Part shown: in pieces, positions 1-61,623 of the stretch
Layout of the letters: each line of letters opens with the position of its first letter
Numbering within the stretch: the stretch's first letter is position 1
The notes under the pieces: model-generated
Seen by the model: only the letters and a program-made list of their open reading frames with translations
Told to the model about the DNA's origin: nothing
Database searches by the model: none
Made by a program: the position numbers and the translations under genes
Assembly: GCA_000004695.1 (NCBI GenBank)
Contig: CM000151.3
Coordinates: 7,776,001-7,840,000, forward strand
Length of the DNA stretch: 64,000 nt
Direction of reading: 5' to 3'
DNA from: Dictyostelium discoideum
Taxonomy: Eukaryota

Positions 1-793
1 AATACTCCTCTGATGGACAATTAATATATGCAAATGATGTACCTGGTGATGGTTTGGTAAGTAGTTCCTCTGGATATACCATTCTTGGATTTTCACGATC
101 TTCATTCATAACTGGTTTTCTCTGTGCGACCAATTGTTGAATCTTTGATTGTTTGGTAATTTTTAAATCTCTTGCTTTATTACTATCGAATCTACCCATC
201 ATTTTTTTAGAATGGAAAATGTAACATATCTTTTCATCTGTTGGTTCACTAACTATACTTGATTCTTCTTCTTGTTGTTGTTGTTGTTGTTGTTGTTGCT
301 TTCGTTTTTGGTGTTGTCTTTGTGGTTTATGTGATTGTTGTAATTGTTTTTGTAATTGTTGTCGTTTTCTATGTTCTGGTGTTAAGAATGGTATTGCTAT
401 AACTTTGAATACTCCATCCTCAATCATATAATTTTCACTATCTGAAAACTCTATAATCTCAAGGTTTTTAATATATTGAAAACATCTTGATATTTTAAAT
501 AGTTTTTTAATTCCAGGTGGTCCATATATTTGAGTGTTGGTTGGAAATGTTGTAAATGATAAACCTATACCAAAAATACCACCAATATCTTTCCAATCAA
601 GTGATGTTAATAAAATTTTACGTGTTTTATTAAATGATAAACCATCTTTACCAAGTAATGATCTTAATGTTGATTCTGATGGATCAATTAAATATCTATC
701 ACCAATTTCTGAAAATACATATGTACATGATAAATTTGAACCATTAAATATAGTTTCAACAAATGAAACACCTAATGCATAATTCCCTCCCAT
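1..793 (-). CDS. tRNase Z (ELAC2-like long form), N-terminal part; ATG at 793..791, gene continues past the window start
   Basis: Reverse-strand translation MGGNYALGVSFVETIFNGSNLSCTYVFSEIGDRYLIDPSESTLRSLLGKDGLSFNKTRKILLTSLDWKDIGGIFGIGL... matches the ELAC2 N-terminal pseudo-MBL region (human '...YLFNCGEGVQRLMQEHKL...IFLTRMHWSNVGGLSGM'); followed by a Q-rich low-complexity stretch. Confidence 0.65.
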   Translation of the reverse strand, partial: MGGNYALGVSFVETIFNGSNLSCTYVFSEIGDRYLIDPSESTLRSLLGKDGLSFNKTRKILLTSLDWKDIGGIFGIGLSFTTFPTNTQIYGPPGIKKLFKISRCFQYIKNLEIIEFSDSENYMIEDGVFKVIAIPFLTPEHRKRQQLQKQLQQSHKPQRQHQKRKQQQQQQQQQEEESSIVSEPTDEKICYIFHSKKMMGRFDSNKARDLKITKQSKIQQLVAQRKPVMNEDRENPRMVYPEELLTKPSPGTSFAYINCPSEEY

Positions 794-1200
794 TTCTTTT
801 TATTACTATTTATTAAGTTTTTAGTTTTTTATTTCTTAAAAAAAAAACAAATAACTGATAATAATAATAATAATGAAAAAAGAAAAAAAAATTAGAAAAA
901 AAAAAAAAGTTAAAATTGAAAACGAATTGTAAAAAACGAAAAAAATAAAAAATAAAAAAAAACAAAATAAAATTAAATTAAAAAATAAAAAAAAGTAAAA
1001 AAACGAAAAAAAAAAAAAAATATCATAAATTAAATTAAAAAAAAAAAAGATTTTAAAATAATAATAAATTAGTAATTACAATAATTTTTTTAAAATTTAT
1101 TATACTAAAAAAAAATATAAAATGATTAATCAATTTACCCAAAAGTTGGATCAAATAATTTATTTTATTTTTTTTTATTTTTTTTTTTTTTCAAAATTTT

Positions 1201-1237
<37 letters not shown>

Positions 1238-1376
1238 CAAGTCATGACATACCCCTAAATTAAAATTTTTTTATTTTTTATTTTTTTTTTTTTTTTCATT
1301 TTCAATTTGTTAATTAATAAATTCAAATTGAAATTCATATATTCATAATATAAATAAATAAATAAAAAAAATCAAA

Positions 1377-2183
1377 ATGAGTGAGATGTTAATGTTAACA
1401 AGTTCAGATTCAATTGAAATCAATAGATATGAAGAAGGTATAAGAAATAGTGGTAGATCATTTAATTGGGTATTGGTTAGAGATACACTAAGATTCTTAA
1501 GAAAGAGTAAAATACGTAAATCAAATCTTGTTTCAAAGTATGGTTTAAAATTAGTTACGCAATATTTCAATAAATTAGAAGATCAAGAAGGTTATGATAC
1601 AATTGAACAAGTGATTGTAGCTTGTTTAGATTGTGGTGATCATACAAATCCAAAGAAACTTTTCGAACAATTAAAATCAAAATTTGGTAAAGATAGTGTA
1701 CGTGTCCAAAGAATTCATGCATTATGTCTAGAATCAAATAATCAGTTAGCTGAAGCTTTACAAATTTTTGAATCAATTTTAAAAAAGTATCCATCTGATG
1801 CTGTATGTATTATTTATTAATAGATTAATTTATTAATTGATTAACTACTTACTTACTTTTTTTCAATATTAATAAATAGTTAAGTATGAAAAGACAAGTG
1901 GCAATTTTTAAAGGACAAGGAAATTTGAGTAAAGCAATTCAAGTTTTAAATGCATATCTTCAAATATATATGTGTGATTTAGAGGCATGGTTAGAGTTAT
2001 CATCATTTCATATTTCATATCTATCATATAGCACTGCATTATATTGTTTAGAAGAGGTTTTATTAAATGCTCCAATTAATTTTGTTTTTTATATTAAATA
2101 TGCTGAAGTATGTAATATTTTTTTTTTGTTGTTTTTTAATTTCAAACTAAAAAAAAAATATTAATAATAATCAATTATTTTTA

Positions 2184-2226
<43 letters not shown>

Positions 2227-2542
2227 GCCTTTATATTGTTTAGGTGGTAATGAAAATTATAATAGTGCAGTTCAATATTATACACATGCATTGGAATTAA
2301 ATTCACCAACTGAAATGGATAAACTTGATCATCCACCAACATTTTTACCTGCCATTTATGGTATTATCATGTCAATTTATTCATTATGTGAGGAAGGTTA
2401 TCAATTAAAAGAAAGTCAACTCAAACTTATGGAATGGGCTCAAAATAATTTATTAACCATCACAAAGAAATACTCTTCAAATGATAAAATAAACCTTGTA
2501 AAACATTTCATTGATTCAACTGATATCTTTAATAAAGAATAA
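1377..2542 (+). CDS. ER membrane protein complex subunit 2 (EMC2/TTC35, TPR protein); join(1377..1802,1880..2142,2228..2542)
   Basis: Exon 2 'KRQVAIFKGQGNLSKAIQVLNAYLQIYMCDLEAWLELSSFHISYLSYSTALYCLEEVLLNAPINFVFYIKYAE' and exon 3 'GGNENYNSAVQYYTHALELN' track human EMC2 '[41 protein letters not shown]...[42 protein letters not shown]'; GTATGT donors, AT-rich introns ending ..atag. Confidence 0.85.
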
Positions 2543-3084
2543 AATATAAATTAATTAAATTAAAAAATAAAATAAAAAATAAACTTTAAATAAAAAAAAA
2601 GTGCTTGAAATAAACTATTTTATTCTTTTTACTTTATTATTAATAGTAATTTAATATTAAAAATTTTAATAATAATAATAATAATAATATGGAACAAATT
2701 GGAATATTATAATAAATTTGGATCTAAAAAAAAAATTTTTTTTTTATTTTTTTTTTTTCCATATTTTAATAAATGTTTTATTTAACATTAAATATTTTAT
2801 TTCCAAATTATTCAACTTTTAATAATTTTTAAAAATAAATAAAGAATAAAAAAAAAAAAAAAAAAATATCCTATGCCATCTTTTTTTTTATTTTTAGAAT
2901 CTATTTATTTTATTTTGTTTTTTTTTCTTTTGTTTTAATATTTTTAATTATTTTTAATTTTTTTTAATCTATATATTTTTTTTTTTTTTTTCTGATTTTA
3001 TTATATAATTTTTTATTTTTAAATTTTTATTTTTATTTTATTATTTAGATTTTAAATATCTAATTCAATCATAAATCTTTTTTT

Positions 3085-3120
<36 letters not shown>

Positions 3121-3174
3121 CAAAATAATTTTTTTTTTTTAAAAAAAAAAAAAAAAATAAAACAATTTTCATTT

Positions 3175-3207
<33 letters not shown>

Positions 3208-3262
3208 CACCAAAGAATAATTATTTGTTTTTAAGTTATAGGTGACTTTTTTTTTTTTTGTC

Positions 3263-6556
<3,294 letters not shown>

Positions 6557-15065: not shown

Positions 15066-18000
15066 TAATATAAATAATGATATAATTTTAAATAGATTTC
15101 CAAATCAAACACAATTTTATGAAATGGGAAGATATTATTCTCCTTTGTATACTATATCTTCATCTGGTGATTTACCAATTTATAGAACAAATTCTGTGAA
15201 TTCTGTAAATCCAAAAGCAATATATGGTTCACCTAATAATTACACATTTATAGGTTCAGTAACCGAACCAGATTCAAATAAAAAATTTTTTTTACAAACA
15301 TTAAATGGAAATAAATTTGAAAATATTACAACCAATCTTTTTACAACAATAAATGGTATGTATATATGAATTATTATTATTATTATTTTATAAAAAAAAA
15401 AAAAAAAAAAAAACTGTTTTTAATAATTAATTTTTTATTTTAAAAAAAAGTTCTCCCATTTTATAGAATACCATTACTTGCTGATTTTACCTATAGTACC
15501 TCAACAGATTTATCAACAATGTTCACAGCATACTATGATTCATCCTCAAAATATGATTTTTCAACAATAAAATATACTCTTAAAGAATACAATTTAAAAT
15601 TAGCATGGCCATTTGGATTTGAAAATGGAAATAATAATGCCCATAAGTTAATTGTATCTTTTCCATTTTCCAATTATTCATCACAATATTATGATACATT
15701 TAGTGTTTCTGTTATTAGTGGTTCTGTTTTGGGAGAGTTAATCCCTGTTAATTTGGGTAGGTATTTTATTATATTTTAATTTTTATTCTTATTTTAATTT
15801 AAAATTATCACTTCTACTAACTTCTTTTTTAAAAAAAAATTATTAAAGTAACAACAAACCCTCTAAAAATTTTATCTTTTGAAATAATTTATTTATATGA
15901 TTTTAATGTTTTGGTAAAGGTAAAAATTAATTCAAATGTTTCATATAAATATGAAGAGTTTTCTTATATAGATATTTTGGGTGAAAAGTTTGGATATGAT
16001 AAATGTGTTTCAAATGAAGATCAAAATCCATCATTTGAAATTCTTGTTAATTCATGGAATTTATTTGAAAAAATTGAAATTAGTGATTTATCTGGTTATA
16101 TAATAACATATGATATGGGCTCATTTGTTGATATAAATCCTCCAAAAAGATTAATGCATCCATTAGTTATGGCTGGTATGTATAAACAAAAAAAAATTGT
16201 ATAAATAAATTAATTATTTTTACTAATTGTAATATTTTTTTTACAATTAATAGAAAATGATATTTTTTCAATTGAAAATGTTACATTTTTATATAATAAT
16301 TTAAATGTTATAGATAAAAATGTTCCAAACGTTATGTCATTTAATTATAGTGATGTAACCAATACTAGAAAACCATTTGGTCTTTACATTTTAGATGAAA
16401 CATCAGGATTTTTAAATAAATATGATGAAAAATCTGTATTTTTCTCAAAATGGAACCCTATAAAAAAAATGTATGAAATTGAATTTTTTGTTGGAGCAAA
16501 TTCAAGGGAAGGTGTTTTACCTTGGATGTTAATGGGTGGTAATAATAATGCAGGTCTTATAAATTCATTTTTACCACATTCTTGTCAACTTTTTATAAAT
16601 CAATCGAGTAAGTTTAAAATTATATTATTCAATAATTAAATAATTATTTTTATTTTTATTGACATTTATTTATTTTTTTTTTTTATTTATGTAAAAAAAA
16701 AAAAGAATTTGATGCATATGGTCCAATTTTTACAAATATTACTAAAACTAGTAGTTATGGATTAAAACCAGAATTATTAGTTGATTGGGAATTCCATATT
16801 AGAGATGAAGTTAACGGATTTGAAAGAGGTTATATTGAAATTAGAGGCGATTTTGATAGTTCCTTATATAGATTTACATTTACAAATGCAAATTTAAGAC
16901 AAGGTGATATCTATAATGGAGTATACATTTATACTCAAATTATTTCATTGAATAATGTATGTAATATTCAAAATTATACTATTACAAATGTTGAATTATA
17001 TGATCGATTTGGTAATTCTGCAAAGTTTAGTACTATTTCAGAAAGAGTTGATGTTGACCCAACAAGAAATCCTTTTATTTTATTTGGCGATGATCCAAAT
17101 ATAAACAAATTCCAAACTGATTGCAATGATACAGTAGATGACTATCCTCCAAAATTATTATCATTTTCATTTGAAAATAGGATGGAAACAACTCAATCAA
17201 TATTATTTTCATTTTCAGCTCAATGTATTGATAGTGGTATTAAATTCGCACAATACCCAATAGTTTATGCAACTTCAAGCCAATTCAAAACAGTTCAATG
17301 TATTTCTTATATAGATTTTTACAATACCACATATGCCTTGTATTCTTGTCATATGGATATTCCATTTGGTTTCGGATATAAAAATGAAATTTTATTCAGT
17401 GTTTATGGATTTATAAATAATGGCGGATACTTTAGTGGTTTCTCAACAGAATATTTGAAAACTAATTCTTTTCCATATTCAATTTCAAATATTCCGCTTT
17501 ATAGAAAGTTATCAGTTGAAAAAACAAGTTCAATTACAAATAAAGGTGGTGATTTATGGATTATTGGTAGAGAATTTGATATTAACAGTTGGGTATTTGT
17601 ACTATATACTGATGGTAAACCCAACGATTCTTTATATCCAAAAGAACTTCATTCAACTGCAATTCTTGTTAGTGGAATTAAACCTACTATACACCCTTTT
17701 ACAATTCAAGTAAGACATATTACAAATGGTACATTAGCTTCAAACAATTATAGAGTTGACCCTCTCATTTTTATATATCCTGAAGATTCATCTTCAACTT
17801 CTTCAACTTCTTCATCCTCAACCTCTTCATCTTCTAGCTCATCATCATCATCATCATCATCATTGTCATCATCATCATCATCAAATGAAACTACGCCTAG
17901 CCCAACATCATTACCAACAAATGCTCCTCAAAAATGCAAAGGAAATCCAATTTGTGGTGGTTTAAATGGATATTGTTCATCTAGTGGTTGCGTTTGTTAT

Positions 18001-18975
18001 TCTCCATGGGTTGGCGAGGATTGTTTATCAAAAGTAATCATTGTACCACAACCATCAACAAATACCTCGCAACCATCAACTGAAATTCCAATTTTTGATG
18101 ATAATAATTCAGAATCAATTATGTTTAAATCATTGATTTCAATTGTTTCATTAAGAGAATTAGATTTCAATGATAAACAAGTAAACCAATATAAATTTGA
18201 TAAATGGACTTATTCAAAATTAAATGAAACAACAAATCAATATTTCACAAATATTACAATTCAACCATCAGCTTCAAATAATTTTAAAAGTAGTATAACT
18301 AATATCACTGCAACATTACAATGGTTTAATAAAGAAACAAATATAACATTTGCAAATGAACAATTACAAATGAAACCATCTAGTATTAAATATACAATTG
18401 AAATTTCACAATATAAATTCTCAAATGCATTAAATAAATTACAACTTGTAATGTCAGCATCATTAACATCTTTTAAAGGTGATGATAATAACATTTGTTC
18501 ATTCAATAAATTTGGTGAAACTACAAATGGTGATGATTCTGAATATATTAAAATCCAAGTTGATGATCATTCATTATATGGTAGATTTATTAAAAGAGCT
18601 TTCATTGATTCAAAAATTAGATCAATTTCAAATGTTCAATTGGATTCATCATTTGAAAATCCTTCCTCATCTTCATCCACATCCTCTCAACTATTCATTG
18701 GTATTGAAATTCCAATCTATAATGATAATGTTATTATAGATCCTGACTTTTCTGTACTAATAGACAGTAAAGCTGCCTCAAATAGTGATGATAATTCAAT
18801 ATGTTCATCAAGTATATCAAAACTATCAAAAACTCAACTTGCTGGTATTATTATTGGTTCAACCCTATTTGGTTTAATAGTGATAGTTGCCATAACCTAC
18901 TATGTCATAAATAAGAGAAAAAATACTAAAATGATTAACAGGATCCAAAATAAATTAAAAAAAGTTAACAAATAA
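14152..18975 (+). CDS. Secreted/type-I membrane modular glycoprotein (signal peptide, EGF-like Cys module, Ser-rich stalk, C-terminal TM); join(14152..14539,14656..14916,15065..15355,15451..15756,15849..16175,16254..16607,16706..18975)
   Basis: N-terminal 'MKFILFFIIIFYLISYINC' signal; EGF-like 'CKGNPICGGLNGYCSSSGCVCYSPWVGEDC'; poly-Ser; TM 'LAGIIIGSTLFGLIVIVAITYYVINKRK' then stop. All six inferred introns are phase 1 with GTAAAT/GTAAGA/GTATGT/GTAGGT/GTAAGT donors; exons 2 and 6 both open with 'END(F/I)(F)S'. Middle junctions are less certain. Confidence 0.55.
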
Positions 18976-20283: not shown

Positions 20284-21187
20284 GTGAGATAGAGTTGCGA
20301 TGATGAAATTGATAATACTATTTTTTTTTTAAAAAAAAAAGATAACTTGGAAAAAAGAATATTAATTTAGTTTAACTTTTTTTTTTTTTTTAAAAAAAAA
20401 TTAATTTAGAGTCGACCCATTCACCCGTAAGGAATGGTATGTTGTAAGAGCACCAACTCAATTCTTCAAATCACCAGCTGATAACAAAGTCGGTTTCACT
20501 CCAGTTAACAGAACCCAAGGTACCAAACTTGCTTCTGATGGTTTAAAGGGTCGTGTCTACGAAGTTTCACTCGCTGATATGAAAGACGATGAATCCCAAG
20601 TCTTCAGAAAGATCAAATTAAGAGCTGAAGAAGTTGAAGGTAGAAACGTTTTAACCAACTTTTACGGTATGGATTTAACCTCAGACAAACTCCGTTCATT
20701 AATCCACAAATGGTCCACCTTGATCGAATGTTTTGTTGATGTTAAGACCACTGATGGTTATTTCCTCCGTGTCTTTGCCATCTGTTTCACCAAAAAGGGT
20801 GAATCCCAAAAGAAAAAGACCTCATACGCCAAGACCTCCCGTGTTAAGGCTATCCGTAAGAAGATGGTTGACATTTTAACCGAAACCGTCTCATCCAACG
20901 ACCTCAAAACCGTTGTTGACTATTTAATTGGTGTCTCATTAAACGGTGTTACCACTAACGCCTCTGGTTTTGCCCCAACCCTCGCTGAAAAAATCAGAAT
21001 CGAAGGTTCATCAATCTTCCCAATCCACAACGTCTTCATCAGAAAGGTTAAAGTCCTCAAGACTCCAAAAGTTGATGCTGCTAAATTATCTGAACTCTAT
21101 GCTTCATCTGCCACCTCAACCATCGCCCCAACTGAAGAAGTAGGTACCGCTGTTGAAAGAACTGAAGAAACCACCACCACCGCTTAA
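19600..21187 (+). CDS. rps3a: 40S ribosomal protein S3a (eS1); join(19600..19607,20092..20127,20410..21187); the 8-nt first exon is tentative
   Basis: Exons 2-3 give '[73 protein letters not shown]...[16 protein letters not shown]...', colinear with human RPS3A; GC3-rich codons (ggt, acc, ctc) typical of highly expressed genes. Exon 1 'ATGGCAGA|GTACGT' is proposed because it gives 'MA(D)KKKK'. Confidence 0.8.
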
Positions 21188-21354: not shown

Positions 21355-21662
21355 TTAAAATAAAACTTGTGAATCTGGTATAGTTAAATTATTTTTATCA
21401 TTAATTGAAATAGTGTTTTTACCAAATAGAAATTCAGAGGATTTTACAGTATTCTTTTTACCTTCTTCAAATAATTTAGTAATACCAATCCAACCATCTT
21501 TACAATTTACCCACATTATATTATTATAAGGTTTTGATTTATCAGTTTCTAAAAAGAAAGAACCATGTTTTAAAGTTGTTGAATTTCTATTTTCATAATT
21601 TTTGATATCTATTAATAATTGTTTATACATTTCATTTGTGGTGGTTGTGGTTGTGGTTGTGG

Positions 21663-21715
<53 letters not shown>

Positions 21716-22500
21716 GAATCTGATGGTGGTTGTAACATTTCTTTTACTTTAATTGTTTTTGCAGATTTTGATTTCTTATTGTAAATCATTGTATTTAAAC
21801 CAATGTTATCACTGAATGCTTTATAAAGAATCCAAATCTCATTGATGGTTTGTGTTGACCATTCTAATTTTGACATTTTTCTATTCACTTTTGGTGCTAA
21901 AGTTTTACCTTGTTCAGTTTGATTTTTAGCATTTTTGGAAGATTCTGGAAAATCTTGAATTGTTGACATTACACATTCACTTCCTAATTCAACCAAGTTT
22001 GTTAGTAATTGATTGTATAGGATTTTATCTTTATCATATGGTTCCAATTTAATTTGTTTTAAAATTTTACCACAGTCGAATCTTTCGTGATGTAATTCTA
22101 TCACCGAGATACCAACATTATCATCGTCGCTTAGAATTTGGTGGTAAATGGGTGCAGCACCACGATGTCTTGGTAATAATGATGGATGCATATTAATACC
22201 ACCATATTTAAATTTTGATAATACTGATTTCGGTATGAAATGTCCAAATGATACAACCACGGCCAAATCAAATAATTCATCATTACCTTGTTCACTTTCA
22301 CCAGTCGTTATCTTTGGTACTTGAAATCCTTTCATACCATTAATTGCATCAGGATATGTTATCTTTAAACCATTCTCAATTGCATATTCTTCAACTAATT
22401 CTTTTTTTTCGGATTTTGGACAAATAACTTGTAATTCTTTAACTAAATTATTTGTTTTTAATTCTAATTTTTTTGAAAAAAAAATTAATTAATAAACCAC

Positions 22501-22548
<48 letters not shown>

Positions 22549-22755
22549 CCAAAAATAAAAAGTGTTTAAAAAAAATACATACATACTTTGGTTTTCATGA
22601 AGAGATTTTAAAATTGGTAATGAAACATTATCAGTACCAAAAAATAAAATTCTATATGGAGGTGATTTAATTATTGAGGTGGAAAAATATCTAATGTTAT
22701 TAAATAGAATTGAGTTTTTATTTTTGTTGGTTAAAATAGAACGTGATAAAAACAT
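21355..22755 (-). CDS. Mitochondrial methionyl-tRNA formyltransferase; complement(join(21355..22436,22587..22755)); the acceptor may be 22427 instead
   Basis: Formyltransferase core 'VVSFGHFIPKSVLSKFKYGGINMHPSLLPRHRGAAPI' (the SLLPxxRG motif); N-terminal presequence-like 'MFLSRSILTNKNKNSILFNNIRYFSTS'; 'YRILFFGTD' start of the catalytic domain; GTATGT donor. A (GTT)n tract encodes a ~27-residue poly-Thr insert in the C-terminal domain. Confidence 0.8.
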
Positions 22756-23231
22756 TCTTTAAATTCTAATATTTTTTTTTATTTAATAAATATGTTTTTA
22801 TGGTATTATTAAAAATTTAAAAAAAAAAAAAAATAAATGTTTTCGTAAAAAAAGCGAATATCAAAATTGATATTACGTTTTTGGCAAAAACTGGTCAAAA
22901 TGTGTTTTAATAAAAAAAAAAAAAAAAAAATCAATTTTTAATATTTTTTTTTTTTTTTTTTATTCTGAACACCAAACCCTTTTAAATTAAATTTTTCTAA
23001 ATTTCAATTAATATTTTTTATTTTTTTTATTTTTTTTATTTTTTTTTTTTTTTGCTACCCAACATAACTAATTTGTTTTATAGATTCAAAATTTTATTTA
23101 TTTGTTCATATAAATAAATAAATATATATAAAAAAAAAAAAAAGAATAAAAAAAAAAAAAAAAAAAAAATAATAAAATAATAAAAAATTAAATAAAGTAA
23201 TAATAGTAATAAAATAATATATATAATTAAA

Positions 23232-26200
23232 ATGGCAAAGGTAAAATTTTTAATTACTATTCTTTGTTTTTAAATTAATTTTTTTTAAATTAATTCCTGT
23301 CTTAATTTTTTTTTATTTTATTTTATTTTTTTTTTTATTTTTCAAATTAAGAAACATTCAAGAGAAGAAACAATAACATCACCAAGTCCAAGTGGAAATA
23401 CAACTACAACATCTACAACAAGTCCAACATCAACAACACCAACAAAAGAAAAAAGAACAAAAATTTCAAATGGAAATAATAAAGAAAAAGAAACCAATAG
23501 TAATAATAATATAAATACAAGTAATACAAATATTTTAAATGGTAGTGTTAATAGTTTAAATAATAGTAGTACAAATTTATTTACAACACATCAAAATAAT
23601 CCAGTAAAGAATTTAAAAGGATTTGATGATATTGGTGAAGGTATACTTAGATTCGAAGGATCAAAAGAAATTGATTTCATTGGATCAGTAAAGAGAGTTC
23701 ATTCAATGATGAAAGATTATTTAAAGAAAACTCCACAATATGATTACGAATTATTAAGTCAATTATTCAAATGTGATTTACAATTGAAATTAGAGAATCT
23801 TCAATTGTTTGGTGATATTTATGTTAGAAATTGTTTTAGTATCCTTTTATCAAATTATTTTAATCAAGCCAAAGATTTAGGTAAAGAGTTTAGACAAATT
23901 GGTGGTTTCGTTTTAGTGATTAATCCAATGGATATTGAAAGTCAACCAATGGTAACTGGTAGTATTTTAACTGCTCTTCATTTAAAAATGAAATGTATTA
24001 TTTATGTTGGTCCTGGTAATTTACCATTATCACAAATTACAAGAGTAAGAGTTATTATTATTTTTATTATTATTAATTATTAATTATTATTTTTTTTATT
24101 TTTATTACTAATTTAATTTTTTTTTTTTTTTTTAAAAAATAAAAGTTATATATGTGTCATGCTAGAGGTGCAAAAATTATATTTCATAAAGGTGATGTAT
24201 CATCATGTTATACAAGAGCATGGCAACATGCAAAAGATATGAGTATGGTATTTTTAGATTGTAAATTTATACCACATTTTAGTTTATTGGGTGCAGCAAC
24301 TATTGCACATGAAATGATGGAGGATAGTCCAGATAGGGAGACAATTATCATACCATTAAGATTATATTCACAGGGTTGGAGTTATGTCAGTGGTATTTCA
24401 ATTTTCTATAAGATTATGAAACCTGAAATCAAGATTATAGTAGTTCAAATGACTGATGATCTCTTTGGTAAAGATATTGAAGGTAAAGAATTTAATAGAC
24501 AATCATTATTCCCTGACCGTTTAGAGATTGGTTGGTTAGCATTAATTCATGATCAATCAGATCTTACCAATGTTTTCGACGCTTTCGATTCAAGAAATCA
24601 AGGTAAATTCTCTGATAAAGATTTAGAGGCATTATTGATAAGCATTGGTGGTGATCCAACTAGAAATAAATCAATGTGTCCAAAATCATCACTTTCTCAA
24701 ACTGAATTTGTTCATGAAGTAATCACAGAGATCACAAATGGTTTAGAGCAATTGGAGGAGAAATTTAGCTACTTTTTACCACAATTCAAATTGGATAACT
24801 TAATCAATCATAAAATCATCGATCAATTAGTAACAGCAACCGAGGATCAAGCTTCAATCGCTTTCATTAAATGTTTAGAGTATACCCATACTCTCACCAA
24901 TGGTAAGGGTTCAATTGCTTTGGGTGGTCTAATGAGTGGTAATATTCATTTAAGACCCGATGAAAAAGTATTGGTTATGTTATCAGGTGGTTATGTCGAT
25001 GTAATCGATTTTCAAACTATTTTAAACTATGGTTTAGATATCACTGGTCAAAGCTTTGAAATTGAATTGGATTTACCCGATAATACTACATCACTAAATA
25101 AAGTATTAAATGTTATTGGTGAAAATAAAGTATCAGTTATGGAGGTATTAATGGATCGTTCTTGTGAAACTTTAAAACAATATCATGTTAGAACTTCAAT
25201 TCAATGTCATTCAAGAAATTTTGAACAACAATTTAAAATCTTTGATGTTATTAAATCTTTAGGTTTTAAATATAGTTTAAGAAAATCTGCAATTCTAAAT
25301 AAAGAAGAATCTGGTTTCCTCTCACCACCAATGATTAAGCCTTCAACAAATTTATCAATTTCTCAATCAATTAATATTGGTAGTAGTGTAACGAGTTTAC
25401 CATCATTTCCAAATACTTTAAATTCAAGTAGTTCAAATGCATTTAATAGATTTGGTAATGGTAATGGTAGTTCATCAAATACAACATCACCATCACCACC
25501 ACCACAACTACCACCACAATTACAATATAAAATTTCACCAAAACCATATCATCAACAAAAAAGAAATATTGGTGATATAACAGTTCAATCAATTAGAGAA
25601 GCACATAATAGAATTAAACATATTATGACTCAACCACCCATTTATCATTCAACTACCTATTCAAAGATTTGTGGTTGCAAAGTTACATTAATGTTAGAGA
25701 ATACTCAAAAGACTGGTAGTTTTAAGATTAGAGGTTCATCGAATATGGTGTTAAGAGCATTGGAAGGTGCAATGGTAAACACTGATGAAAGACCAGTTGG
25801 TTTAGTTGCTGCCTCTGCAGGCAATCATGCTCAAGGTGTAGCTTTAATCTCTGCAAAAGTTGGTTTACCTTGTACAATCGTTTGTCCAGAGTATGCACCA
25901 GATTCAAAATTATCATCAACTCGTCAATATGGTGCCGAAGTCATTAAAAAGGGTAAAAGTCTTGAAGAGGCTGTCAAATTGGCCGATGAAATCTGTAAGG
26001 AAAGAAATTGGACATTGGTTAGACCTTACAATGATGTTGATGTAATCGAAGGTCAAGGTACAATGGGTTGTGATATCTATGATAAAGTACCAGATGTCGA
26101 TACTGTGGTTGTAAATGTTGGTGGTGGTGGTATGATCGCTGGTATCGCACTATTCTTGAAACGTATCAATCCAAACATTAGAATCATTGGTGTTCAATCA

Positions 26201-26965
26201 GCAAACGTTTCACCATTATCAGAATTTAAACAAACCAATCAATTCCGTTATATCGAACCAGCAGTTTTATCATTGGCCGATGGTACAAATGTAAAGATGC
26301 CAGGTGGTGTACACACTCAAGTACTTCATGATATGGTCGATGAGTATGTAACCGTTAGTGAAAATGAAATCGCTTCGACCATAGTTCATCTACTTTATAA
26401 TAGTCGTACAGTTTCAGAGGGTGCAGGTTGTTTAGGTTTGGCTGCATTAATGCATAAGAAAATTAAAGTTAGAAAGGATGAAAGGGTTTGTGTCATCATT
26501 TGTGGTGGTAATATCGATATGTCAACACTTCGTCAAGTCTATGAATATGGTTTACGTTCACTTGGTCGTTCTTTCACAATTCATTTAACAACTTGGGATT
26601 ATCCTGGGACCCTAAGTAAAATCATTGGTTTGGCTGCCCGTGCCGAATTAAAAGTTCGTGAAATTAGACATATCCGTGGTGGTGGTAATATCAATTGGAA
26701 TGAAGTTATCATTTCCCTCTCCTTCTATAGTAACTCTTTTAATCATCAAAACTTTTTCTTATCTCTATTGGCTCAAGAAGGTCTCTTCCCAAAGATTGTC
26801 GGTAGAAAATACATTAAAGATAATGAAATAGTCTATAAAATTTTCGATAAATCTGTTGATAAAAAGAATAAAGAATTAAAAGATACCTTTTCAGAAAGAC
26901 AACAACTATTTTTAGAACAATATGGAAAACAAGCCAATGTTTCTTTGGAAAGTAAAATGAATTAA
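23232..26965 (+). CDS. Threonine dehydratase/ammonia-lyase (IlvA-type, PLP enzyme) with an N-terminal degenerate second dehydratase-like copy; join(23232..23240,23352..24044,24146..26965)
   Basis: C-terminal half: 'TGSFKIRGSSN' (PLP-Lys motif), 'VGLVAASAGNHAQGVA', 'VVNVGGGGMIAGIA' glycine loop and an ACT-like 'SFTIHLTTWDYPGTLSKIIG'. N-terminal half aligns to it ('LKLENLQLFGDIYVRN' vs 'LMLENTQKTGSFKIRG'; 'QGWSYVSGISIF' in place of 'GGGGMIAGIALF'; 'SFEIELDLPDN' ACT-like), but the Lys is replaced by Tyr. Confidence 0.75.
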
Positions 26966-27165
26966 AAAATTTTTTAAATAAATAATAAAAAAAAAAATAA
27001 TAATAATAATATACAAATAAAATTATAAAATAAAATTCAAACATATATATTTAAGGAAATAAATAAAATAAATAAAACTTATATATATATATTATTATCA
27101 TTATTATTATTATTACTAATTTATTATTATATATTTTTTATTTTATTTTATTTAATTTTATTCTT

Positions 27166-32699: not shown

Positions 32700-34861
<2,162 letters not shown>

Positions 34862-61549: not shown

Positions 61550-61623
61550 CGAGACCATCAGGGGTCGAACCTGAGACCTACCGGTTCGTAGCCGGTCGTT
61601 ATATCCAACTAAACTATAGTCCC
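61550..61623 (-). tRNA. tRNA-Arg (anticodon ACG)
   Basis: Reverse strand GGGACTATAGTTTAGTTGGATATAACGACCGGCTACGAACCGGTAGGTCTCAGGTTCGACCCCTGATGGTCTCG: 7-bp acceptor stem (with G-U pairs), D-loop AGTTGGAT, anticodon stem ACCGG/CCGGT with loop CTACGAA (ACG), T-arm TCAGG-TTCGACC-CCTGA. Confidence 0.8.

Follow-up and report, generated by a model that had tools for sequence, protein, structure and literature searches.

Gene structure and transcript

The gene studied here encodes a threonine dehydratase-like protein of Dictyostelium discoideum, in which two related halves, an N-terminal one predicted to be catalytically dead and a C-terminal one predicted to be active, are joined in a single polypeptide. 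It lies on the plus strand of a 64,000-nucleotide stretch of DNA (contig CM000151.3 of assembly GCA_000004695.1, positions 7,776,001 to 7,840,000), which is called the window below and to which all coordinates refer. The window has a guanine plus cytosine (GC) content of 22%, with short AT-rich introns and poly-Asn/Thr tracts. The coding sequence including the stop codon occupies 23232..26965 in three exons (23232-23240, 23352-24044 and 24146-26965) and encodes 1173 amino acids in frame. Both introns have GT..AG ends: intron 1 (23241..23351, 111 nt) begins with GTAAAA and ends with TTAAG, and intron 2 (24045..24145, 101 nt) falls within the pseudo-pyridoxal phosphate (pseudo-PLP) domain described below.

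A single mRNA extends from 23151 to 27011 on the plus strand, with a 5' untranslated region of about 81 nt and a 3' untranslated region of about 46 nt. It is represented by three Logan transcript assemblies (L001-L003, from SRR24091722, SRR24091725 and SRR24091728) of 3.63-3.65 kb, each of which contains an uninterrupted open reading frame (ORF) of 3522 nt and neither intron. Compared with the window, they split into three blocks (23151-23240, ~23352-24044 and ~24146-27011; 99.8-100% identity), and their product differs from the window protein solely by E48D. This intron-less three-block alignment indicates that both introns are spliced and that one mRNA spans both halves. A preliminary description, made from the sequence of the window, had placed the two introns at exactly these coordinates, named RNA data as a check and assumed one polypeptide rather than two genes; the single mRNA and the single ORF agree with it on each of these points, and two separate genes are ruled out for the main transcript. 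Moreover, an open frame of 940 codons has a chance probability of about 4e-40 in DNA of 22% GC. The 937-aa product P0015, which starts with a Met at window position 24152, is merely the ORF of exon 3.

The spliced model is identical to XP_642753.1 of D. discoideum AX4 (UniProt Q86AP7, Q86AP7_DICDI), which is labeled only "threonine ammonia-lyase" in the databases. Its 90%-identity cluster contains orthologs of 1160-1179 aa from D. citrinum, D. dimigraforme and D. firmibasis, the last of which bears the UniRef name "EF-hand domain-containing protein".

Domain layout

From the N-terminus, the protein consists of a disordered segment, a dead fold-type-II PLP domain interrupted by an EF-hand pair, an ACT-like domain, a disordered linker, an intact threonine/serine dehydratase domain, a second ACT-like domain and a C-terminal extension. 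The N-terminal segment of low complexity (aa 1-89; 23232..23609 including intron 1) has a predicted local distance difference test score (pLDDT) of 25-46. The Ser/Asn/Pro-rich linker between the halves (aa 617-700; 25292..25543) has a pLDDT of 25-36, and the ORF is continuous through it.

The N-terminal half, a predicted pseudoenzyme

The dead PLP-fold domain is divided by the insert into a first part (aa 90-345; 23610..24478 including intron 2) and a second part (aa 456-535; 24809..25048), and is followed by the N-copy ACT-like domain (aa 536-616; 25049..25291), which has the beta-alpha-beta-beta-alpha-beta order of the ACT fold. Residues 127-338 match Pfam PALP with 42.2 bits (gathering threshold 35, E=8e-11), and the best NCBIfam model for this half is TIGR01127 (E=6e-35, in two stretches). 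BLASTP of the N-half against the C-half gave two collinear high-scoring segment pairs, the first running from the end of the PLP domain, including its second part, through the ACT-like domain (28% identity, E=6e-19) and the other covering the first ~230 residues (E=5e-6). Overall the two halves are 23% identical over 449 aligned columns. An AlphaFold2 model of the N-half alone, computed from a 10-sequence family alignment, reached a pLDDT of 83.1 and a predicted template modelling score (pTM) of 0.81. In a Foldseek comparison of this model with the PDB, the top 50 matches were all fold-type-II PLP enzymes, the first being full-length IlvA (~517 columns, E=1.6e-17). Thus, sequence profile and fold both place the N-half in the fold-type II PLP superfamily, and the catalytic signatures of the superfamily are missing from it. 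The homology of the N-half to the C-half, with a PLP domain followed by an ACT-like domain in the same order, had been proposed in the preliminary description; profiles, segment pairs and structure comparison all support it, and an unrelated fold is excluded.

The loss of catalytic residues is seen in several motifs. In the alignments, LKLENLQLFGDIYVRN of the N-half is paired with LMLENTQKTGSFKIRG of the C-half, and the Schiff-base lysine is replaced by Tyr160 (codon TAT, 23820..23822; GDIYVR aligned with GSFKIRG). Likewise, SFEIELDLPDNTTSL of the N-half is paired with SFTIHLTTWDYPGTL of the C-half. In a MAFFT alignment with bacterial single-domain relatives, NPMDIESQPMVTG stands in place of SAGNHAQG, and SQGWSY (aa 309-314; 24368..24385) with a 4-aa insertion stands in place of the GGGG phosphate-binding loop. 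Further replacements in the family alignment are NGKG for EGAG, YTHT..GKG for RT..EGAG and GGY for GGN. The change of lysine to tyrosine, the QGWSY loop and all the N/C motif pairings quoted at first are therefore found again in these alignments.

The same holds for the family of tandem proteins described below. Among the N-copies that cover the column of the Schiff-base lysine, the residue is Y, Q, L, S, T, S or M and never Lys. Every C-copy keeps SFK, SAGNH, GGGG and EGAG, the N-copies covering those columns are without all four, and each tandem protein has exactly one SFK motif, located in the C-copy. The N-half is thus predicted to be a pseudoenzyme, which keeps the PLP fold and has lost the catalytic lysine and the PLP-binding signatures.

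The C-terminal half, a predicted threonine/serine dehydratase

The putatively active PLP-dependent dehydratase domain (aa 701-1040; 25544..26563) matches Pfam PALP (PF00291) with 264.6 bits (gathering threshold 35, E=1.5e-78). The best-scoring family for the C-half is NCBIfam TIGR01127 (E=3e-107, profile positions 2-375 of 380), and the serine racemase, EutB and hydroxyaspartate dehydratase families are also matched with E<1e-56. The nearest solved structure is that of the catabolic TdcB (2gn0; E=2.5e-65), with a Foldseek template modelling score of 0.92 and 37% identity. The motifs of the family are present and invariant: GSFKIRG with Lys761 (codon AAG, 25724..25726), the predicted PLP Schiff-base lysine conserved in 13/13 family members; SAGNH at 791-795; the PLP phosphate-binding loop GGGG at 893-896 (26120..26131); and EGAG at 992-995.

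A single ACT-like regulatory domain (aa 1041-1116; 26564..26791) follows the PLP domain at the C-terminal side. It is covered by the TIGR01127 match, and residues 1043-1116 show the beta-alpha-beta-beta-alpha-beta pattern in the AlphaFold2 model; the single-domain relatives P0001 and P0002 carry PF01842. Pfam detected Thr_dehydrat_C (PF00585) in neither half and reported PALP alone for the C-half. With regard to biosynthetic IlvA (TIGR01124), the C-half scored 226.4 bits against a cutoff of 411.3. We therefore rejected membership in classical IlvA, since this score is far under the cutoff and PF00585 was undetected. The preliminary description had called the C-half a complete IlvA-type enzyme: the part about a complete, motif-intact dehydratase with an ACT-like domain stands, and the type has to be corrected to TIGR01127/TdcB-like. 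The C-half narrowly misses the curated TIGR01127 cutoff and is therefore filed here as TIGR01127-like (medium form, predicted threonine ammonia-lyase), and the C-copy is predicted to be the intact enzyme, a PLP-dependent threonine/serine dehydratase.

The C-terminal extension (aa 1117-1173; 26792..26962) consists of the pattern P.I.GR..I....VY..FD followed by charged helices. It occurs in all tandem proteins and in none of the ~400-aa single-domain relatives, and is helical in the model. This conserved element was overlooked in the preliminary description; its role may lie in oligomerisation or in contacts with the N-half.

An EF-hand pair within the dead copy

The insert of ~110 aa in the dead PLP-fold domain (aa 346-455; 24479..24808) is located between the strand IIVVQ (aa ~330-336) and the remaining pseudo-domain, and has no equivalent in the C-half or in single-domain relatives. 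It takes the place of a segment with the conserved ADG motif, located in active homologues past the strand that comes after the phosphate loop. The D. discoideum insert by itself matches Pfam EF-hand_7 weakly (E=0.016; 16 bits against a threshold of 30), and each of the Pfam EF-hand families was found in at most 3/13 members (EF-hand_6 in 3/13, EF-hand_1 in 3/13). A profile of the insert (A3) was built from ten family members and compared with the PDB, where it matched 705 sequences at E<=1; the best 60 of the 705 are all EF-hand proteins. The best match was a calmodulin/calcineurin B fusion chain (4il1, 4.6e-14), followed by ALG-2 (4e-13), and secretagogin and myosin light chain were also matched. 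One of the alignments covers both hands of an EF-hand pair. On these profile matches, aa 346-455 are homologous to a helix-loop-helix EF-hand pair, which was overlooked in the preliminary description.

In the 13-sequence full-length alignment, the only invariant residues of the N-half are F378 (the Phe of the E-helix), G387 (Gly6 of the loop) and F422 (the Phe after the second loop). All three are inside the EF-hand pair and none is in the remains of the enzyme fold. The canonical pattern of Ca2+ ligands was taken as D at position 1, D/N/S at 3, D/N/S at 5, G at 6, a hydrophobic residue at 8 and E/D at 12. Five members have a canonical-looking loop: DKDGDGELTRSE, DKDKNGVVSGKE, DTDESGDVTEKE, DVDQSGWLEQTD and DKNNSGIVTKND. 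Aduncisulcus (GKT25912), Barthelona, P0024 and P0019 are among the orthologs with canonical loops. On the other hand, EF-hand loop 1 of D. discoideum (aa 382-393; 24587..24622), which reads DSRNQGKFSDKD in D. discoideum and D. purpureum alike, is degenerate, with Arg at 3, Gln at 5 and Asp at 12, and departs from this pattern at positions 3 and 5.

A GC- and Ala-rich eukaryotic member of the family (P0019, 1344 aa; gene at 147-4181 of the 4196-bp contig L005, Logan SRR18460346) carries a low-complexity expansion of ~250 residues between the two hands of the insert. This shows that the site between the hands tolerates large insertions.

Distribution, origin and constraint

The exon-3 part of the N-half was used as the query of an exhaustive HMMER search of 1.84 billion representative sequences at E<=1e-3, and the best 150 of 625 matches were examined. 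Most of these were ~400-aa single-domain enzymes, which matched only the C-terminal third of the query, and about 10 were proteins of 877-1344 aa matching along the query. Look-up of their clusters named tandem carriers in D. purpureum (XP_003294419), Barthelona sp. PAP020, Dysnectes brevis and Chilomastix cuspidata. Further carriers are Aduncisulcus paluster (GKT25912, "threonine ammonia-lyase, partial") and "Eukaryota sp. TZLM1-RC" (KAL0214707), which is Skoliomonas, a metamonad related to barthelonids (PMC11603281). Four more tandem members came from metagenome or Sequence Read Archive contigs, one of them AT-rich and dictyostelid-like. This distribution is based on the representative search and the cluster look-ups; a separate search for homologues of the N-half gave only four prokaryote-like single-domain proteins, and nothing when the family alignment of the N-half was the query; since it missed tandem relatives present in the same collection, its empty result does not mean absence of homologs. 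The preliminary description had suggested looking for the architecture in other Amoebozoa. It is found in other Dictyostelium species and, moreover, in metamonads, and these sequences indicate that the tandem architecture is not peculiar to Dictyostelium or Amoebozoa.

A metagenome scaffold from the ENA (L004, 7213 bp) carries, at 1672-4596, the gene of a 974-aa family member (P0017), which shares the tandem layout and whose EF loop looks canonical. This AT-rich homolog (20-30% GC) contains poly-Asn, and its gene adjoins one for a CDC14-domain protein. The source is probably an uncultured dictyostelid or other amoebozoan. The N-terminus of P0017 seems to be truncated by an intron that escaped recognition; a search of this scaffold for the missing upstream exon gave no clean candidate.

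A neighbour-joining tree (Kimura distances, bootstrap) was computed from 20 single-domain relatives together with 11 N-copies and 11 C-copies. One bipartition unites the N-copies (bootstrap 97), and the C-copies fall into a single clade (bootstrap 99) that lies among the single-domain enzymes. Together, these two groupings suggest that the fused protein arose once. Its presence in dictyostelids and metamonads would mean either that it is very old and was lost many times or that the gene was transferred between eukaryotes. As for the origin of the two copies, the preliminary description had assumed an internal tandem duplication. However, the N-copies score slightly better on a profile of single-domain relatives than on a profile of C-copies (170.5 against 139.6 bits for D. 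discoideum). Because no specific affinity of the N- to the C-copies is seen, the fusion of two TIGR01127-type paralogs fits as well as an internal duplication.

The evolutionary rates of the two copies are different. Between D. discoideum and D. purpureum, identity is 84% in the first and 91% in the second pseudo-PLP part, 84% in the EF insert and 94% in the N-copy ACT-like domain (ACT-N), with zero gaps; it is 96% in the live domain and 100% in its ACT-like domain (ACT-C). In the disordered regions of the same pair, identity drops to 41% in the N-terminus, with 30 gaps, and to 68% in the linker, with 43 gaps. Among distant members, mean identity is 23-26% for the N-copy and 49% for the C-copy, the N-copy evolving about twice as fast, and ACT-N is the least conserved structured region (13% mean identity). 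These comparisons indicate that the dead copy is under selective constraint, and the pattern of rates appears typical of a pseudoenzyme that is retained and freed of catalytic constraint.

Neighbouring genes

The upstream divergent neighbour (21355-22755, minus strand) resembles a mitochondrial methionyl-tRNA formyltransferase, as we presume from its HPSLLPRHRGAAPI motif; an intron apparently divides its ORF, in which 28 threonines follow one another without interruption. The ORF at 20579-21187 on the plus strand resembles what we take to be the C-terminal two-thirds of ribosomal protein S3a/eS1. The 675-aa ORF at 16948-18975 (plus strand) combines an extended poly-Ser tract with an EGF-like region rich in Cys, ends in a hydrophobic anchor, and resembles a Dictyostelium cell-surface protein. 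The 284-aa ORF at 32700-33554 on the minus strand consists almost entirely of Asn-rich low-complexity repeats (N/M/S), homopolymer tracts typical of Dictyostelium. The sole tRNA reported by ARAGORN in the window is a tRNA-Arg (anticodon ACG) at 61550-61623 on the minus strand. The neighbours were considered as functional context and set aside, the locus being eukaryotic and its neighbours looking unrelated.

A possible regulatory pseudo-subunit

We infer, with a probability of roughly 0.6, that the dead copy is a built-in regulatory pseudo-subunit of the live dehydratase. The preliminary description had likewise suggested an intramolecular regulatory or heterodimer-mimicking role, which is plausible. 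Threonine/serine dehydratases are textbook allosteric enzymes: they form homo-oligomers, and their known regulation acts through ACT-like domains or through sites for nucleotides. TdcB and IlvA are active as dimers or tetramers; in free-standing relatives the single ACT-like domains of different subunits pair, and effector sites arise from such pairing. Given such oligomers and such pairing, a chain with one dead and one live copy, each with its own ACT-like domain, can be read as a covalent heterodimer. The N-copy would be a covalently attached pseudo-subunit: its dead PLP domain would be the partner of the live one, and ACT-N that of ACT-C, so that a "heterodimer" with a single active site would form within the molecule. 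The paired ACT-like domains would then form a double effector module resembling that of IlvA.

The C-copy would be the sole catalyst, which may convert L-threonine, and perhaps L-serine too, into 2-oxobutyrate (or pyruvate) and ammonia in a catabolic role. A catabolic role is suggested by the inability of D. discoideum to make isoleucine and by the fact that the other carriers are amino-acid-fermenting anaerobes. To our knowledge, D. discoideum requires isoleucine and is without the rest of its synthesis pathway; a literature search for a citable statement of isoleucine auxotrophy in Dictyostelium found none. With regard to the anaerobes, threonine degradation has been proposed as an efficient source of adenosine triphosphate (ATP) for anaerobic protists, as stated for Entamoeba (PMC5859476).

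The EF-hand pair is the most conserved element of the dead half, which makes it the leading candidate for an element of input or coupling. It probably provides an input for Ca2+ where the loops are canonical, and did so in the ancestor. In D. discoideum, given the degenerate loop, it would more likely be a structural or Ca2+-independent coupling element.

Several points weigh against a regulatory pseudo-subunit of this kind. Ca2+ binding by the D. discoideum protein is doubtful, as its loop has Arg and Gln at ligand positions 3 and 5, and the EF loops of Dysnectes, Chilomastix and the family member Logan1019 are likewise degenerate. The AlphaFold2 model of the full-length protein has a pTM of 0.50, with confident domains and an uncertain mutual arrangement, and the disordered linker of ~85 aa also fits independent halves or pairing in trans between chains. 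Moreover, the C-half narrowly falls under the curated cutoff of TIGR01127 (358.9 against 378.75 bits), so that the substrate (Thr, Ser or a related hydroxy-amino acid) is less than certain.

The first alternative, which we regard as unlikely, is that the dead copy is a purely structural scaffold: it would stabilise or solubilise the active domain, or set the oligomeric state as a substitute for a partner, and would transmit no regulatory signal, the EF-hand pair and ACT-N being inert remnants. The disappearance of all catalytic and PLP-binding residues would be expected of such a scaffold, and the degenerate EF loops of D. discoideum and several others, as well as the low identity of ACT-N among distant members (13%), fit it. 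However, the sole invariant residues of the N-half lie in the EF-hand pair, and canonical-looking patterns of Ca2+ ligands are kept in five lineages, findings that an inert remnant would hardly show. Between D. discoideum and D. purpureum, ACT-N is also 94% identical.

It is quite improbable, in our view, that the N-half has an independent function, such as a PLP-independent ligand sensor or a protein-binding or localisation module, and is merely tethered to the dehydratase by the flexible linker. The length of this disordered linker and the low pTM of the full-length model could be explained in this way, and the N-copies have conserved motifs of their own (KLENLQ..GD, P.R..S.WS and YTHT..G.G) which are missing in active enzymes. 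On the other hand, all family members found keep the fusion to the dehydratase, which speaks for a functional link between the halves, and no free-standing complete pseudo-half was seen among the best 150 of 625 matches, where the short matches appear to be fragments.

Very little speaks for the N-half being a decaying, functionless relic of duplication. The roughly twofold faster evolution of the N-copies among distant members (23-26% against 49% mean identity) and their long branches in the tree could reflect decay. Nevertheless, the frame is open and the fold confidently predicted (pLDDT 83), identity with D. purpureum is 84-94% without indels where the adjacent linkers are rich in them, and the copy is retained across Dictyostelium and five genera of Metamonada. 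An annotation artefact, in which a pseudogene-like copy and an adjacent real dehydratase gene were wrongly merged, has the low-complexity linker as the sole point in its favour and is scarcely credible, since three independent assemblies span 23151-27011 with the introns removed and the 3522-nt ORF intact, the linker has a coding-like GC fraction (0.25-0.33 against 0.04-0.15 in the flanking intergenic DNA), and the fusion is also present in transcriptomes of unrelated protists.

Returning to the regulatory pseudo-subunit, a bolder extension may be considered for the whole family, which we put forward only as a doubtful possibility. The family might be a Ca2+-gated switch of amino-acid catabolism, in which Ca2+ on the EF-hand would reposition the pseudo-subunit and the paired ACT-like domains and so toggle the live dehydratase, the whole fused gene having been passed from eukaryote to eukaryote, which would account for its patchy occurrence in Dictyostelium and Metamonada. 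If true, Ca2+ signalling would be tied directly to the production of 2-oxobutyrate or pyruvate and of ATP in anaerobic metamonads and, ancestrally, in dictyostelids.

Comparison with known systems

The gene is already in the databases under a generic enzyme name, and its architecture is undescribed in the literature searched. No description of the tandem architecture was found in ~8 million full texts, searched for threonine dehydratase or deaminase together with pseudoenzyme, EF-hand, Dictyostelium or metamonad, and for the accessions; a paper on Giardia muris merely lists threonine dehydratase as present or absent. Nor did this literature hold a described example of a pseudoenzyme-enzyme tandem in fold-type-II PLP enzymes. 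We know of no earlier one in this superfamily, in which the present protein would be the first. The labels "threonine ammonia-lyase" (D. discoideum, D. purpureum and Aduncisulcus) and "EF-hand domain-containing protein" (D. firmibasis) hide the architecture.

The family represents a conserved lineage in which one subunit appears to have been permanently fused, stripped of its catalytic residues and supplied with an EF-hand pair, and it offers a possible direct link from Ca2+ to amino-acid catabolism. The question is directly testable, as the protein is a single chain and D. discoideum is amenable to genetics; the family also comprises canonical as well as degenerate EF loops, a natural series that can be compared. 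The finding is relevant to specialists of PLP enzymes and pseudoenzymes and overturns nothing established.

Among the known systems, the closest is TIGR01127 (ilvA_1Cterm, medium form), which is the best family for both halves and has the same order of a PLP domain and a single ACT-like domain. However, its known members are single-copy proteins of ~400 aa, whereas here two copies are fused, one of them dead, with an EF-hand insert, a long linker and a C-terminal extension. TdcB (2gn0/2gn1/2gn2) has no ACT-like domain and is a homo-oligomer of active subunits activated by adenosine monophosphate, whereas no sign of nucleotide regulation was seen here. In IlvA (E. coli 1tdj/9d2q; TIGR01124), each active chain carries its two ACT-like subdomains side by side at the C-terminus. 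In the present protein, by contrast, the ACT-like domains are ~500 residues apart, each after its own PLP-fold domain.

With regard to the EF-hands, calmodulin, ALG-2/PDCD6 and calcineurin B are matched by the insert profile (to 4.6e-14) over one or both hands, and several orthologs have canonical DxDxDG...E loops. Unlike the calmodulin-type proteins, the pair here sits inside a dead enzyme domain, and the D. discoideum loop is without ligands at positions 3 and 5. Finally, JH2-JH1 of JAK, D1-D2 of receptor protein tyrosine phosphatases and AdoMetDC/prozyme of trypanosomatids are systems in which a dead paralogous domain is retained beside or paired with a live one, typically as an allosteric regulator or obligatory partner. 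Their folds and chemistry are unrelated to those of the present protein, and the arrangement of a dead and a live paralogous domain is what they have in common with it.

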